The notes under the pieces are model-generated. The model made no database searches and was not told the DNA's origin. It saw only the letters and a list, made by a program, of their open reading frames with translations. The position numbers and the translations under genes are program-made. Positions 14,882 through 24,641 of a DNA stretch of 64,000 nt are shown here, piece after piece (within the stretch, counting starts at the first letter, position 1; each line of letters opens with the position of its first letter). Origin of the DNA: Chloropicon primus (Eukaryota); NCBI GenBank assembly GCA_023205875.1, contig CP060762.1, forward strand, positions 620,001-684,000, read 5' to 3'.

Positions 14882-16375
14882 ATGAAGCCACTGTCGAGGC
14901 CATCTCTGAATGCTTCCGGAAGGCTTGCGGTCGTCAGGGGGAGAAGTTCTCCTTCGATGGAGAACCTCGCCCCCAAAATTGTCACGGCCGCGGAGGATGA
15001 CTCTCCCTTTTATCGCTGTCCATGTAAGAAGGCTTGTGCTAAACAATGTCTTTGCCGATGTGTTTGCTCGTACTGCAAAAACATTCGTCCATGTCTCCTG
15101 GGGTCGTCAGAGGCAATGCAAGACAATCCCTTTCATGCCACGGCTTGCGATTGTCAGCTGTGCAACAACGAGGGGAAGAGTCCTGTGTGCGGGAAGAGGA
15201 AGGCGAGCAGCGACCCCACCGTGGATTCTCTTGTCAACTCGTGGAAAGATTGGAACCCTCTCTTCGGAAAATGGAAGAACCGGCGTCGAAGATGCCACCC
15301 GTCCAAGGAAGGACGAGAACTTCCTCGGGGAGTGTCCAAGCATGGTGCTGAAAGGTACCATGCGACGATTAAAGGACTATTGGTTCCGAACAAAGTATCG
15401 TCATTGGGAACCTTCGACACCAAGGAAGCAGCCGCGGCGCGATACGACCTCGCTGCTACCTTGTCTCACGGGAGAGCAGCGATGCTGAATGGCGAAGTGG
15501 ACGAGAACCTCCTTGCCAAGTTTGGAAAGAAGACGCCCGAGGAACGATATGAAATGGCGATTGATCTCGTATCAGGTTGTCAGGGGGAAGCATTCCGCGA
15601 ATATCTCGACCAGGAGGAACAAAAGAGTCCTGTGTGCGGGAAGAGGAAGGCGAGCAGCGACCTCACCGTGGATTCTCTTGTCAACTCGTGGAAAGATTGG
15701 AACCCTCTCTTCGGAAAACTGAAGGACCAGCGTCCCAGTTGTAACCTGCCCAAGGAAGGACGAGAACTTCCTCGGGGAGTGGATAAGATGGATAAGCATG
15801 TGGAAAAGCATGATGAAAAGTACGATGTGAGGATTAGAGGACTATTGTTTCCGAACGTTATATCGACTTTGGGACGTGGGGTGGAGACCAAGGAAGCAGC
15901 CGCGGCGCGATACGACCTCGCCGCTACGTTGTATTACGGGAGAGCCGCAGAACTCAATGGCAAAAGAGACGACAAAATTCTTGACAAAATGCTGAGAGAC
16001 TTCGCTGCTATGTTGTTTCCCGGGAAAGCCGCGAAACCCAATGGCAAAAGGGACGGGAAACTACTTGACAAAGTACTTGACGACCTCGCTGCTGCATTGC
16101 CTCACGGGAGAGCCACGAAACCCAATGGCAAAAGGAACGGGAAACTACTTGACAAGCTGCTTGACGAGTTTGGAAAGAGGACGCCCGAGGAACGATTTGA
16201 AATGGCTGTTAAGCAAGTACGAGGTAAGAAGTGGAAAGGATTTCACCGCCAATTACTCGACCGGAAGAAGAAACAAAAGATACAGAGAGAAGAAACAGAG
16301 AGAAGAGAGGAGGAGGAGGGGGAATCAGAAGCGAAGGTCGACGACAGGTTCGTCGTGAGACATTGTCTTGGTTAA
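14882..16375 (+). CDS. Cys-rich N-terminus + two AP2/ERF-like DNA-binding domains (internal duplication)
   Basis: LPRGVSKHGAERYHATI...LGTFDTKEAAAARYDLAA...GRAAMLN is an AP2 consensus. A second copy lies 447 nt downstream (15176 vs 15623), followed by three NGKR.GK.LDK subrepeats. Confidence 0.85.
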   Translation: MKPLSRPSLNASGRLAVVRGRSSPSMENLAPKIVTAAEDDSPFYRCPCKKACAKQCLCRCVCSYCKNIRPCLLGSSEAMQDNPFHATACDCQLCNNEGKSPVCGKRKASSDPTVDSLVNSWKDWNPLFGKWKNRRRRCHPSKEGRELPRGVSKHGAERYHATIKGLLVPNKVSSLGTFDTKEAAAARYDLAATLSHGRAAMLNGEVDENLLAKFGKKTPEERYEMAIDLVSGCQGEAFREYLDQEEQKSPVCGKRKASSDLTVDSLVNSWKDWNPLFGKLKDQRPSCNLPKEGRELPRGVDKMDKHVEKHDEKYDVRIRGLLFPNVISTLGRGVETKEAAAARYDLAATLYYGRAAELNGKRDDKILDKMLRDFAAMLFPGKAAKPNGKRDGKLLDKVLDDLAAALPHGRATKPNGKRNGKLLDKLLDEFGKRTPEERFEMAVKQVRGKKWKGFHRQLLDRKKKQKIQREETERREEEEGESEAKVDDRFVVRHCLG

Positions 16376-16673: not shown

Positions 16674-16797
16674 GACGTTAGTTATACAAGGATCACAACG
16701 AGATCGTAACGGCGGAGGACGGCGAGGACGACGACGGCGACTGACGTTAGTTATACAAGGATCACAACGAGATCGTAACGGCGGAGGACGGCGAGGA
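16674..16797. repeat. 55-bp exact direct repeat, 69-bp period
   Basis: GACGTTAGTTATACAAGGATCACAACGAGATCGTAACGGCGGAGGACGGCGAGGA at 16674 and 16743. Confidence 0.9.
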
Positions 16798-16921
16798 GGA
16801 CGGCGAGGAGGTGTGTGACCTGGCGGGAGCTGGAGAGAGAAAGAGAGCCGCCGTAACGCCAGAGCCGCGAACGAGGCGGCCGACGAGTGGGGACGAGAAG
16901 ACCACGACCAGAGAGAAAGCG

Positions 16922-18190
16922 ATGAGTTACCTCCTGGAATACTTCGGCCGCTGGTTGCCGACGAAGAAGAGGAGACTGACGAATACTGGGACGTCATGTG
17001 AAGAAGGGGCTGGTGGCGCCACCCCGGCCGCGGTTCTCCAGGTGGGTGGCGCCCAAGGATGGCGGGTGGCGCCCAAGGATTGTGGTGCCAATGTCTCTGT
17101 CTTCACCCACTTGCAGGGCAGCGGGCAGCCGTGCGGCGCGGTGGCACTCGGAACAAGCCTGGACACCAACGCTTGCACAGTGGCCCTGGCGATCTCCGCG
17201 GGACCTCATAGGGAGCGGGAGATGGCCGCCATCGAGGAAAACGTGGATCCGACGACGCTTCTCAATGCGGATGGACTTCTTGCCTCTCTTCGCTTCGCAG
17301 ACGACGAATCAGCTGGCGCGCGGCCCACCCTTGCACGCGAGGGTACACGGGCGGAGCGAACTCGCGAGCCTGAGGAGCTGACCCTGGTCCGCGTGGTCCG
17401 AGGCCGTGGCGGAGTCCACCTGGAGCGCGTTGAGGGCTTGAAAGAACTGACCCACTGCATCGTCTTCCTCCGCGAGTCCCTTGCGCAGGAGGGGCTTGGG
17501 AACAAGCTCGCTGGTCAGGCGGCCACGATCTCAAGCGCGTTGCTCGGCAAAGATCTTCCTAAACAGGTGAAAGCATTTCGTTTCGTGGAGCTTGGGACCG
17601 CCAGCCGCTCGCGATGCCTCAAGGACCGCAAAGTTCTTACGAAAGCTCTTGCCCTTGCGAAGGAGAAGGGCGAGCCTTGCGCGCTTCTTGTAGCTGCCTT
17701 GTCGCGATTGTCGAGACGGTCACAAGCTGACGAGGACCTCGACTACCTTGCTGAGCGCGCAGGGCAGGCCTCTATACTGGCGTGTATCCCGACGTCCCAT
17801 GCAGCAGCTTTGATTGGGGAGGAAAAGAAAGAGGAGCTCAAAAAGTACATGAGCAAGGCTGCAAGCACCTCGGACGGGCAAGCCGTGTACTCGGCGTCGC
17901 ACTGCATGCTCAAGTCCGGCGCCACCCGTTGTTCTGTAGCATCGGGCCAACACACTTCTGAGGAACTTTGTCTCCTCGTCGAACACGTCGAGCACGTCCT
18001 GAGGCACAAGCTGGAGAATCTGGAGAAGCCGGGGGAGCAGAAGCACGGGAAACCCCTTCTCCTCGTAGGTATTGCCCGTACGTCGCCTGGAACTGACGTC
18101 GCCAAGTCTACTTCGATATATGTCCAACGGTGCCTACTCCTCCACGTCCTCTCAAGGTGCGCGACAACCTTCAGAAGGATGTTGCGCTAA
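16922..18190 (+). CDS. Serine recombinase (resolvase-like) protein, 5' part: complete catalytic domain 1 and start of domain 2
   Basis: CIVFLRES (17471-17479)...LAGQ...FVELGTAS...DRKVL...LLVAALSRLSR (17699-17716) follows the YxRxS...Q...E.G.S...R..L...LDRLSR pattern. A second VGIARTS...SIYVQR occurs near the end. First ATG is at 16922 (frame open from 16811). Confidence 0.75.
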   Translation: MSYLLEYFGRWLPTKKRRLTNTGTSCEEGAGGATPAAVLQVGGAQGWRVAPKDCGANVSVFTHLQGSGQPCGAVALGTSLDTNACTVALAISAGPHREREMAAIEENVDPTTLLNADGLLASLRFADDESAGARPTLAREGTRAERTREPEELTLVRVVRGRGGVHLERVEGLKELTHCIVFLRESLAQEGLGNKLAGQAATISSALLGKDLPKQVKAFRFVELGTASRSRCLKDRKVLTKALALAKEKGEPCALLVAALSRLSRRSQADEDLDYLAERAGQASILACIPTSHAAALIGEEKKEELKKYMSKAASTSDGQAVYSASHCMLKSGATRCSVASGQHTSEELCLLVEHVEHVLRHKLENLEKPGEQKHGKPLLLVGIARTSPGTDVAKSTSIYVQRCLLLHVLSRCATTFRRMLR

Positions 18191-19773
18191 GCGGGAAGCT
18201 GCCGGTGATTGAAATCACAATTGGGACCTTTGCAGAGAAGTGTGGAGGCTCGACCTCGGAGGAGGCTGCCGTCCAAGAATGGGTGAAGAAGGTCTGCGAC
18301 GAGGGCAAATACGCAGGGGGCGTTCTACTCTGCACCCGTGCAGATCGGCTTACAAGGGAGCTTGCGACGCTCGGGACGCTCTTGGAAAGGTGCTGTAAGG
18401 CGAACATAGCAACGGTTGCGTGCTTGACAGAAGTGGATGCCGTCGTCACCGAGGAGAGACACGTTCAAGAGGCCGTAGCCCAGGTTCTCGCTGGAGATGA
18501 GGAGTATCTTCTTGGAAAGCGCTTTGTGGAGCAACGGGCGAGTGATCTCGTCCGCGCATGGAAGAACCAACCCACAGTTCGTGTGCTCGTCGCTGCTTGT
18601 TCCATCACGGAAGCGAACTACGACATCATTCTTCGCGAGGAGCACATGGAGTTCCTGGAGACCTACAGGCAATACTGCCACGTTCACTCCGTGAGGGACG
18701 AGTTGTTTGAAAACCGTGATGGACACGGCTTGGATGAAGACGCATTGAGCAGAGTCTTTGAGTACTTTGCGGATGCACTAAAGGGAGAACATGTCGATGT
18801 CGTGTTTGAGAATGAATGTTTCCCAGAAACCGCGATCTCTGTGACTCAAAAAGATTTCTTCGAATGCTCCTGCGCTGATAAATGCTCTCGCAAGTCGTCC
18901 AGGACAACAGGCACCGCGAACACCGCTCCAGCACATACTCGATGCATTTGTGGTTGTGACATGTGCAAGAGGAAGCGTCCTTGCATTCTGGTGGACAGCG
19001 ACGCCGAGGACGGCGGGGAGAGGGAGAGAGAGCTTCGGAAATTTGATGCCGCTGCATGTCCCTGTGAACGTTGCAGCAGCAGCCCCTTGAGCACTGGTAC
19101 GACAAGGAAGACACAGGCCAAGACCAACACGAAAGGGAAGAGGAAGGCCAAAGCAAGGAAGCCGATGAAGGAGTTTCCTCGACTTCCTACTACAGACGGT
19201 ACTCAAACCCTGCGCTGCATCTGCTGTGATGCTTTTCGTCGCCCTGAGTGCCCCTTGGTCAAAACAGGAGCTCTGACCCCGGTTCCTGGGGAGGAACGTG
19301 ATCGAGGTGGGCACAATCCCACTTGCCTCCTCTCGAACTGGTGCTGGTACTGCCACCGCTTCATCTTCAAAAGTGAGTTTAACCACTGGTGCTCGTTCGG
19401 ATGCTTCTTGAAAGCCACGAAGTTCGTGGACAAGAAGGAGCTTTGGGACATGAGCAAGGAAATTGGCATGACACAACTGAAGAACACGATTGGCTTCTGG
19501 TTTTGTGTTCCGTGTACAAAGAAACCTGAGTCCGAGAAAGCCTTGATCGAGAAGATCCCCTCGATCCCCTTGATCCCAACCAACGGTTCAAGGGGCTTGA
19601 GGTGCTTGTCCTGCAGTCATAACGATTGCAAAATCGGCAAGGGGTACAAGGAGAACGCAGAAGGAGGCGGCGTGAACGTTGGCTCCGGCCGGCAGAAGTC
19701 CGAGAACAGAAAGGCCAAAGAGGTAGTGACCCCGCATCCAATGCTCGTCAACATGATGCTACAGGACTCCTAA
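18130..19773 (+). CDS. Serine recombinase protein, 3' part (-1 frame): rest of catalytic domain 2, Cys-rich domain and zinc-finger-like clusters
   Basis: TFAEKCGGS...VLLCTRADRLTRELATL...LERCCKANIATVAC completes a resolvase domain. Followed by a CxCxxxC...CxCxCxxC...RPC...CxCxxC domain and several CxxC pairs. Overlaps the upstream ORF; no early ATG. Confidence 0.72.
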   Translation: MPTPPRPLKVRDNLQKDVALSGKLPVIEITIGTFAEKCGGSTSEEAAVQEWVKKVCDEGKYAGGVLLCTRADRLTRELATLGTLLERCCKANIATVACLTEVDAVVTEERHVQEAVAQVLAGDEEYLLGKRFVEQRASDLVRAWKNQPTVRVLVAACSITEANYDIILREEHMEFLETYRQYCHVHSVRDELFENRDGHGLDEDALSRVFEYFADALKGEHVDVVFENECFPETAISVTQKDFFECSCADKCSRKSSRTTGTANTAPAHTRCICGCDMCKRKRPCILVDSDAEDGGERERELRKFDAAACPCERCSSSPLSTGTTRKTQAKTNTKGKRKAKARKPMKEFPRLPTTDGTQTLRCICCDAFRRPECPLVKTGALTPVPGEERDRGGHNPTCLLSNWCWYCHRFIFKSEFNHWCSFGCFLKATKFVDKKELWDMSKEIGMTQLKNTIGFWFCVPCTKKPESEKALIEKIPSIPLIPTNGSRGLRCLSCSHNDCKIGKGYKENAEGGGVNVGSGRQKSENRKAKEVVTPHPMLVNMMLQDS

Positions 19774-20619: not shown

Positions 20620-21406
20620 GAGCAAGGCATCTCGCTCTGAGGCGTGTTGGATGGATCCTCACCAACGTCTTCTTCTCGAGGTATCGTATGAAGCTCTGCA
20701 CAGCATGGAATCCGATTCTTCCTCGAGTTGGATGCATCAGAAACAGAGGATGGGTGTGATGGTGGGCATGTACACTCACTCAGCATGTTGAATACAGCAA
20801 TATCTATGCTGGTTATGGCCATAAGTCTGAGGCTCATGCGGTTACGTCAGGTTCTTTGGGTGTTTCTGCAGGGCGACTGTCCTTCACATATGGTTTGCAA
20901 GGAGCTTGTGCAGCTGTTGATACGGCTTGTTCATCCTCTCTTGTCGCAGCACACATGTCCTACATGAGCCTTGTTCTTGGCGACGTCTCGAAGGGACTAT
21001 ATACACAATATGCATCGCTTGCGTTCTCGGTCCTCTTGAAGATGGTTCCAAACAAGATACGGTGATGCTACGTGGCACTGCTGTGAACCAAGATGGGCGA
21101 TCCAGTGCTTTGACCGCACCGCACGGACCCTCTCAACAGCAAGTGATGCGTATGAGCTTGCACTCGGCAGACCTTGATGCCTGGAGTGCACAGGTCTTGC
21201 AGATGCACGGTACAGGTACTCCTCTTGGTGGCCCCATTGAGGTCGGTGCGGCATCTGCTGTGTTACTCTCCGAGGCCACCAAACGGGACTTCCCTGTCCA
21301 CATGTCTGGAGTGGAGAGCAATATGGGGCATAGTGAAGCAGCAGCTGGTATGGCTGGTATGGTTCAGCTCGCAGGCAATTTGCTGCGGTCTATGTCCTCC
21401 GTATAA
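20620..21406 (+). pseudogene. Decayed type I polyketide synthase ketosynthase (KS) fragment
   Basis: MDPHQRLLLEVSYEAL (20651), GRLSFTYGLQG...DTACSSSLVAAH, NQDGRSSALTAPHGPSQ, HGTGTPLG.PIE and SNMGHSEAAAG, spread across frames with frameshifts and deletions. Confidence 0.88.
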
Positions 21407-21414
21407 AAAAAAAA
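21405..21414 (-). terminator. RNA polymerase III oligo(T) terminator of the permuted tRNA
   Basis: T10 run on the minus strand 6 nt after the 5' half. Confidence 0.75.
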
Positions 21415-21420
21415 GGCGAA

Positions 21421-21514
21421 TTCGAGTGTAGCTCCTTAACCACTCGGACAACTCAGCAAGGGTTTTTGCTCGCTGAGTGCAGGATTCGAACCTGCGCGGC
21501 TGAAGCCACTACAT
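21421..21514 (-). tRNA. trnS-CGA: Circularly permuted tRNA-Ser(CGA): 3' half 21514-21471, 13-nt spacer, 5' half 21457-21421
   Basis: Minus strand reads A-TGTAG-TGGCTTCAGCCGC-GCAGG-TTCGAAT-CCTGC-ACTCAGC-G, then AGCAAAAACCCTT, then GCTGAGT-TG-TCCGAGTGGTTAAGGAG-CTACA-CT-CGA-A. Acceptor (GCTGAGT/ACTCAGC) and anticodon (CTACA/TGTAG) stems pair; long variable arm. Confidence 0.93.
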
Positions 21515-21655
21515 CGTTCTTCGACTTTCTTACGTAAAAATCGTGTTGAGAAAGAGAAGAAATTTGCTTGTACTTATGGTTCTCCTTGCGCCTCCAGAGA
21601 AACGAAACCCAAGAGGAAGGGACGGCGACCCCAGCACACGACGACCCCAGCAACG

Positions 21656-22309
21656 ATGGCTCCTGCTCCTGCTCCTGCTCAGGACCCCCGGCTTTCGGTC
21701 ATCCGCGGGACGATCCGGGAGGTTCCCAACTTTCCGAAGGATGGTATCCTGTTCCAGGACATCACGACGACGTTGCTGGACCCCGTGGCGTTCGGGCACT
21801 GCATCGAGTTGCTGTACGAGAGGTACAGGGACAAGGGCGTGGACGTGGTGGCTGGTTTCGAGGCGAGGGGGTTGATTTTCGGCGCTCCGCTCTCGCTGCG
21901 GCTCAAGTGCGCCTTCGTGCCCCTGCGGAAGCCCAAGAAGCTCCCTGGAGAAACGATTGGGGAGGCGTACGACTTGGAGTACGGCTCGGACAGGATCGAG
22001 ATGCACGTGGGGCACGTCAAGGAGGGCGACAGGGTGAGTGGCGGCGCCTCTCCGCCTCGTGGCGAGCCTCGACGGACTGACTTTCTCTCTCTCTCTCTTT
22101 CTCAAAAACCTAACCTGCAGGTTTTGCTGGTGGACGACCTCATCGCGACGGGGGGAACCATGGTCGCCGGCATCAAGCTGATGAAGAAGGTGAAGGCCGA
22201 GATCGTGGAGGCGGCCTGCATCCTGGAGCTTCCCTTGCTCAAGGGGAAGGACAAGCTGGTGGAGCACGACGTGAGCCTCTACACCATGGTGGAGAAGGAC
22301 GTCTTGTGA
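21656..22309 (+). CDS. APT: Adenine phosphoribosyltransferase, 2 exons (intron 22034-22120)
   Basis: PNFPKDGILFQDIT, GFEARG, LEYG and VLLVDDLIATGGT PRPP motif; 87-nt GTGAGT...CTAAC-CTGCAG intron. Confidence 0.95.
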   Translation: MAPAPAPAQDPRLSVIRGTIREVPNFPKDGILFQDITTTLLDPVAFGHCIELLYERYRDKGVDVVAGFEARGLIFGAPLSLRLKCAFVPLRKPKKLPGETIGEAYDLEYGSDRIEMHVGHVKEGDRVSGGASPPRGEPRRTDFLSLSLSQKPNLQVLLVDDLIATGGTMVAGIKLMKKVKAEIVEAACILELPLLKGKDKLVEHDVSLYTMVEKDVL

Positions 22310-24225: not shown

Positions 24226-24641
24226 CTCGTCTTCGTCTTCAGTCGTCGGCGGAGGACGCGAGAGACGGGTCGACGGAGAGGGGAAGGGCCTCACAGGCGG
24301 AAGCGCTTTGTCTTCCTCTTTTGAACGAGTGGTCGCGTCCGTAGACCTCGGCGCAACAACGAGAACATCCAACGACAGAGGAGCAAGACATCCTCAGCCT
24401 CGTCTTCGTCTTCAGTCGTCGGCGGAGGACGCGAGAGACGGGTCGACGGAGAGGGGAAGGGCCTCGCAGGCGGAAGCGCTTTGTCTTCCTCTTTCGAACG
24501 AGTGGTCGCGTCCGTAGACCTCGGCGCAACAACGAGAACATCCAACGACAGAGGAGCAAGACATCCTCAGCCTCGTCTTCGTCTTCAGTCGTCGGCGGAG
24601 GACGCGAGAGACGGGTCGACGGAGAGGGGAAGGGCCTCGCA
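24226..24641. repeat. 173-bp tandem repeat, ~2.4 copies, in a divergent promoter region
   Basis: AGTCGTCGGCGGAGGACGCG recurs at 24241, 24414 and 24587; copies nearly identical. Confidence 0.92.

Follow-up and report, generated by a model that had tools for sequence, protein, structure and literature searches.

A circularly permuted tRNA-Ser(CGA) gene with an atypical splice junction in Chloropicon primus

Does a short minus-strand segment of the Chloropicon primus genome encode a tRNA whose two halves lie in reversed order and, if so, can its junction still be processed into a working tRNA? A reading made from the letters alone (henceforth the sequence-only reading) had proposed here a tRNA-Ser(CGA) gene with its 3′ half ahead of its 5′ half, separated by a 13-nt spacer and broken between positions 37 and 38. 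We examined this proposal in a 64,000-nt stretch of contig CP060762.1 (assembly GCA_023205875.1, positions 620,001 to 684,000; henceforth the window), which has a GC content of about 58% (published value 57.5%). We found that the locus is a real circularly permuted tRNA-Ser(CGA) gene of type II (i.e., with its junction at 37/38). Judging from its sequence features the gene is probably functional, with an atypical junction.

In native order the locus escapes standard tools, as the sequence-only reading had anticipated for genes of this kind: ARAGORN reported no tRNA gene in the whole window, and a search of 21000-22000 against Rfam at E-values up to 10 gave no tRNA match. Once the halves had been swapped by script, ARAGORN called a clean tRNA-Ser(CGA) of 81 nt before CCA (37 + 44 nt), so that the proposed identity and junction both held and the halves rejoined to a full cloverleaf. 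The swapped product has fully paired acceptor (7/7), anticodon (5/5) and T (5/5) stems, three D-stem pairs, a 3-bp variable arm and discriminator G73. Eukaryotic tRNA-Ser is recognised by G73, a long variable arm and a serine anticodon, and all three are present. A separate long-intron call by ARAGORN, in which the 3′ half was joined to a distant stretch to give a tRNA-Leu with a 2434-nt intron, was rejected as spurious.

To place this result against chance, a lax half-swapping scan was run at all 15 T-loop anchors of the window and recovered one locus only (through 2 overlapping anchors), with a single anchor matching across 20 dinucleotide shuffles of the window. A more specific pattern, built post hoc from the locus itself, had no match in 100 shuffles.

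Reading along the minus strand, the order of elements is leader, 3′ half, spacer, 5′ half, trailer and T-run (Table 1), an arrangement that agrees with published type II genes. The spacer is predicted to lengthen the acceptor stem by 3 pairs around an 8-nt loop. The run of ten T was found where the sequence-only reading had placed it, and it would serve as the terminator.

Table 1. Coordinates of the permuted gene, its flanking elements and its divergent neighbour in the window.
Feature	Position	Strand	Remarks
AT-rich upstream stretch	21515..21580	minus	candidate external promoter (after PMC3978253, section 5)
Leader, positions -14 to -1	21515..21528	minus	position -3 = 21517 = A
tRNA-Ser 3′ half, 44 nt, A38 to G73	21471..21514	minus	anticodon-stem 3′ strand, long variable arm, T arm (B box), acceptor 3′ strand, discriminator G73
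Intervening sequence, 13 nt	21458..21470	minus	closes acceptor stem; sequence and fold prediction
tRNA-Ser 5′ half, 37 nt, G1 to A37	21421..21457	minus	acceptor 5′ strand, D arm (A box), anticodon-stem 5′ strand, loop with anticodon CGA at 21424-21422
Trailer, 6 nt	21415..21420	minus	pairing partner of leader
T10 run	21405..21414	minus	likely RNA polymerase III terminator (putative function)
APRT gene	21656..22309	plus	context; one intron (about 22033-22119)

The upstream stretch is 65% AT, a value matched by 0.9% of 66-nt windows (i.e., within the top 1% of the window). It carries a loose TATA-like word at 21578-21571 and CAA at 21548, and a strict TATA box is absent from 21515-21580. This stretch is the intergenic space common to the tRNA gene and the divergent APRT gene, which lies 142 nt upstream; the two APRT exons are identical to Chloropicon primus APRT over 126/126 and 62/62 residues (188/188), and the 87-nt intron is spliced out in RNA-like contigs. 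Contigs of three RNA-like runs (X4-X6) covered APRT and left the tRNA uncovered at 90% likeness, assembled contigs being unable to reveal the absence of a small RNA. Neither a metatranscriptome (X7) nor a further DNA run (X3) gave a match to the locus at 80%, again among assembled contigs only.

Several further elements lie nearby. Part of the ketoacyl-synthase C-terminal domain of a polyketide synthase (Pfam E = 1.9e-24) lies at 21000-21400, where contig depth is about 15-50x that of single-copy sequence; polyketide synthases form a large dispersed family in Chloropicon primus, according to the accessible text of PMC6731263. The likeness of the fragment to other copies stops at 21400, 4 nt past the tRNA terminator, which is a sign of local rearrangement. 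Two adjacent plus-strand ORFs (16811-18190 and 18130-19773) show weak serine-recombinase (Resolvase) N-terminal domains (E = 0.004 and 7.7e-6, respectively), are preceded by a 63-nt direct repeat at 16674-16805 and match the Atlas only at 0.82; the second has a Cys-rich tail, and the pair may represent a mobile element close to the tRNA gene. Further repeats occupy 24226-24641 and 15176-16280: nearly identical tandem copies of about 173 nt (99%) and degenerate 84-nt units in an ORF showing a weak AP2 match.

Relatives of the gene were sought by a pattern scan of metagenome contigs, which gave 67 loci. Two were dropped (L023, an ordinary tandem array, and L006, cut by a contig end); the other 65 are permuted, give tRNA-Ser when swapped (44 with anticodon CGA, 19 with UGA and 2 with AGA) and reduce to 11 distinct mature cores. 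Among their spacers, lengths of 12, 16, 28 and 33 nt agree with published Ostreococcus and Micromonas genes and act as a positive control. No orthologue of the Chloropicon type (i.e., with an APRT neighbour) was present among the 67 loci, and viral contigs gave no match to the pattern. Over the first 26 bases the Chloropicon gene shares 19-22 with metagenomic Ser(CGA) relatives.

Closer to the Chloropicon gene than any Ser(CGA) relative is a permuted tRNA-Ser(UGA) of Bathycoccus-like type (L030, L037, L042, L045, L059 and L064): the two agree at each of the initial 26 bases and at 23 of the final 25, a likeness for which a shared ancestral body and an anticodon switch are candidate causes. Lineage was checked for this family alone, and the idea that it came from an unnamed lineage fell when a neighbouring gene proved 90% identical to the representative of a cluster that includes a protein of Bathycoccus prasinos. 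The DNA around most metagenomic permuted Ser(CGA) loci has a GC content of 36-47%, against 49-67% for Ser(UGA) and Ser(AGA) loci. Mamiellales carry a low-GC outlier chromosome, which the lower GC of the Ser(CGA) loci may reflect. The spacers of L025 and L009/L062 contain a short tandem duplication, which in L025 takes in the opening bases of the 5′ half, and these cases show how spacers grow.

The junction had been described as a relaxed, bulge-helix-bulge-like structure in which leader CGAA pairs with trailer TTCG, and this description stood for the outer part of the motif only. Specifically, leader positions -7 to -14 face positions +2 to +9 (trailer and T-run) with 7 of 8 Watson-Crick pairs in the exact bulge-helix-bulge register, the CGAA/TTCG pairing (pair probabilities of 0.96-1.0) forming the core of a helix with ensemble probabilities of 0.98-1.0. 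This outer helix is stronger than expected by chance (P = 0.003, 100,000 leader shuffles), partly owing to an A-run facing a T-run. [quoted passage not shown] Among shifted junction positions inspected by eye, none retains a 7-nt loop together with G at -3.

Position -3 sets the Chloropicon gene apart from its relatives: it is G in all 23 distinct metagenomic contexts, which span all 11 mature cores, and A here. This base lay outside the search pattern; the pattern did fix C32, so that U32 variants could not appear among the relatives. In the accessible text of PMC8479045, cleavage by human TSEN at the 3′ site stops when the anticodon-intron pair is broken (the mismatch tested being C:C, not C:A), and a requirement of the splicing endonuclease for this pair is also described in the part of PMC10539383 available. 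With the cloverleaf enforced, the bond between -1 and A38 is predicted to be unpaired in 33 of 33 relative contexts and paired in the Chloropicon gene, where it sits in a predicted 3-pair helix with U33-G35. Opening the 3′ cut site would cost a predicted 3 kcal/mol and reaching the full bulge-helix-bulge shape 8 kcal/mol, while the cloverleaf itself lies 6.1 kcal/mol above the unconstrained fold (0 to 9.2 in relatives). The junction is atypical, with an A opposite C32 and a 3′ cut site predicted to be paired, a point that the sequence-only reading had overlooked. These folding predictions, which model the RNA free of base modifications and enzyme, are the main evidence against a working gene.

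We nevertheless consider it likely that the gene is expressed and matured along the route of other permuted tRNAs, as inferred from work on C. merolae and Mamiellales (PMC3978253, sections 5, 6 and 8). As the A and B boxes are reversed, transcription probably leans on the AT-rich upstream stretch; it would start from there and end in the T-run. The transcript would fold as a cloverleaf with both ends placed in the anticodon loop. Cuts before A38 and after A37 by the tRNA splicing endonuclease would remove leader and trailer, and a ligase would close the circle between A37 and A38. The spacer would then be excised by RNase P and tRNase Z, before addition of CCA. The weakest step is the endonuclease cut: the enzyme would have to tolerate A opposite C32, perhaps aided by the tRNA body and the outer leader-trailer helix, and to open the predicted 3-pair helix over the 3′ cut site. 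Counting for a working gene, every stem of the swapped tRNA is intact. The anticodon stem in particular is paired at 5/5 positions although only 1 to 4 of its 5 bases are common with relatives, which points to selection on the mature fold. In addition, UCG accounts for 158 of 673 serine codons in 11 Pfam-supported ORFs of the window, so that a reader of UCG is in demand. The 65 metagenome loci of like layout, the spacer lengths that agree with published genes and the outer helix in register count on the same side. Counting against it are the A at -3, the 3′ cut site predicted to be paired, the energy of the cloverleaf above the unconstrained fold, the adjoining polyketide-synthase fragment and the existence of a look-alike gene.

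This look-alike was the one further locus found at 80% likeness in two DNA runs (X1 and X2), where a contig filter may hide more copies. It lies on an 891-nt contig that matches window positions 21432-21458 and 21471-21499 with the pieces in ordinary order, and it measures 106 nt from G1 to N73, with seven T directly after and a short hairpin just upstream; from its length it probably has an intron of about 25 nt. It shares the acceptor, D and T arms of the permuted gene (2 and 3 differences), and the match stops at the anticodon arm, leaving out the anticodon stem, most of the variable arm and the anticodon itself. Given the divergent anticodon stem and variable arm, the look-alike is more likely another serine isoacceptor.

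The same observations bear on an unlikely alternative, namely that the gene was recently disabled or is poorly processed because a single change at leader -3 broke the anticodon-intron pair, with UCG being read by the conventional look-alike or through wobble by tRNA-Ser(UGA). The invariant G of the 23 relative contexts, the predicted pairing over the 3′ cut site and the existence of a paralog in conventional order that shares the acceptor, D and T arms would all fit such a decay. It is harder to reconcile with stems free of any mismatch, with an intact terminator and outer helix, and with a paralog whose anticodon stem and variable arm cannot be aligned at 80%, as for a different isoacceptor. 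Moreover, the accessible text of PMC8479045 words the conserved feature as a purine facing a pyrimidine, and an A at -3 still fits that wording.

Three other readings are quite improbable even when taken jointly. The halves could be the leftover inner parts of two tandem ordinary tRNA-Ser genes that were never one processed unit, and such arrays can indeed mimic the layout, as 1 of the 67 pattern matches (L023) did; duplication followed by loss of the outer halves is also the origin model published for permuted genes (PMC3978253, in the sections available). We think this very improbable here: the locus is flanked neither by an outer 5′ half on its upstream side nor by an outer 3′ half on its downstream side, the break falls exactly at 37/38 in both halves, which complement each other perfectly, and the T-run follows after 6 nt. 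Even less credible is a tRNA-mimic RNA of the bacterial YrlA (Y RNA) type, which would stay permuted and not decode. YrlA (RF02553) was the only Rfam family to align over 21407-21521, but it did so at 14.5 bits (E = 8.6), far below its gathering score of 69; the match reflects only the T arm preceding the D arm, while the locus has a full anticodon arm and the serine identity elements. An assembly artefact that swapped the halves, for which the adjoining multi-copy repeat might give an opening, has an almost negligible chance. In runs X1 and X2, which come from one sample and may be the source of the window, the locus lies within one contig each with 0 differences; a single 930-nt contig of X1 spans 21371-22300 without a difference, the stretch is also whole in X2, and the same layout recurs in the 65 permuted metagenome loci.

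Accepting a permuted gene, we asked whether it had been noted before. In the full-text literature searched there was no report of a permuted tRNA in Chloropicon or Chloropicophyceae. In their accessible text both Chloropicon genome papers (PMC12301720 and PMC6731263) name tRNAscan-SE alone; the main text of the two leaves permuted tRNAs unmentioned, and 12 of the 20 supplementary files of PMC6731263 and one of PMC12301720 contain no mention of tRNA-Ser, anticodon or permuted. The sole Chloropicon tRNA listed in PMC7678280 is tRNA-Sec, and Chloropicon goes unnamed in the available parts of a 2026 review (PMC13578239) and of PlantRNA 2.0. Within this literature, GenBank annotation excepted, the suggestion that the gene may be unannotated in its lineage holds, and it is apparently the first permuted tRNA gene noted for Chloropicophyceae. 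This suggests that the published tRNAscan-SE counts (46 tRNAs in C. primus and 39-42 in C. roscoffensis) are incomplete.

With this finding, permuted tRNA genes reach a class placed as sister to the core Chlorophyta (PMC6731263, accessible text), which is relevant to the question of whether permuted Ser(CGA) had a single origin or several in green algae. Only the missing anticodon-intron pair could lift the case above a range extension: should the gene work, it would offer a natural exception to the rule and a ready-made substrate for testing the green algal splicing endonuclease. A bolder claim, namely that C. primus has no Ser(CGA) gene but this one and processes it efficiently without the pair kept by all relatives, is tentative and in our view rather doubtful. 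If true, the tRNA body and the outer leader-trailer helix would guide the Chloropicon endonuclease to its cut sites; the gene would also close the gap from Mamiellophyceae to core chlorophytes, and permuted Ser(CGA) would become a candidate for an ancestral trait shared by most Chlorophyta.

Permuted tRNA genes were reportedly described in Cyanidioschyzon merolae by Soma and colleagues in 2007 and 2013. The Chloropicon gene resembles these in layout and in its presumed route through a circular intermediate, and relaxed junction motifs are tolerated in C. merolae as well (PMC3978253, sections available). The differences are that C. merolae is a red alga, has junctions at four positions and lacks Ser among its 11 permuted genes listed there; its products were shown experimentally, whereas the Chloropicon gene is known here from DNA. 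Other lineages provide green algal nuclear permuted genes that tRNAscan-SE likewise misses: as far as the accessible text goes, Bathycoccus prasinos has 7 permuted tRNAs (PMC3673656, Table 1) and Auxenochlorella also has them (PMC12633428), the illustrated case being a tRNA-Pro(UGG) rather than a serine tRNA (PMC12636532, Figure S1). A 2026 preprint on O. tauri, in its available part, still relies on BLAST to look for permuted tRNAs.

The closest known counterparts are type II permuted Ser(CGA) genes, listed for O. lucimarinus, O. tauri, Micromonas pusilla, Micromonas RCC299 and the Bigelowiella natans nucleomorph (PMC3978253, Table 1), in agreement with the statement of the sequence-only reading that permuted genes are known from prasinophytes, a nucleomorph and Cyanidioschyzon. 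The 13-nt spacer compares with 12-28 nt in the Ostreococcus and Micromonas genes and 5 nt in the nucleomorph, and with a range of 1-74 nt for published intervening sequences between N73 and N1 (same table). The Chloropicon gene shares with these genes the amino acid, anticodon, 37/38 junction, AT-rich upstream stretch and T-run. Among the permuted genes of green algae, Ser(CGA) has been reported most often, and the Ostreococcus, Micromonas and nucleomorph examples reportedly go back to Maruyama and colleagues in 2010. Unlike them, the Chloropicon gene belongs to Chloropicophyceae, has a different tRNA body, carries A rather than G at leader -3, and replaces the usual inner hBH helix with a long outer one.
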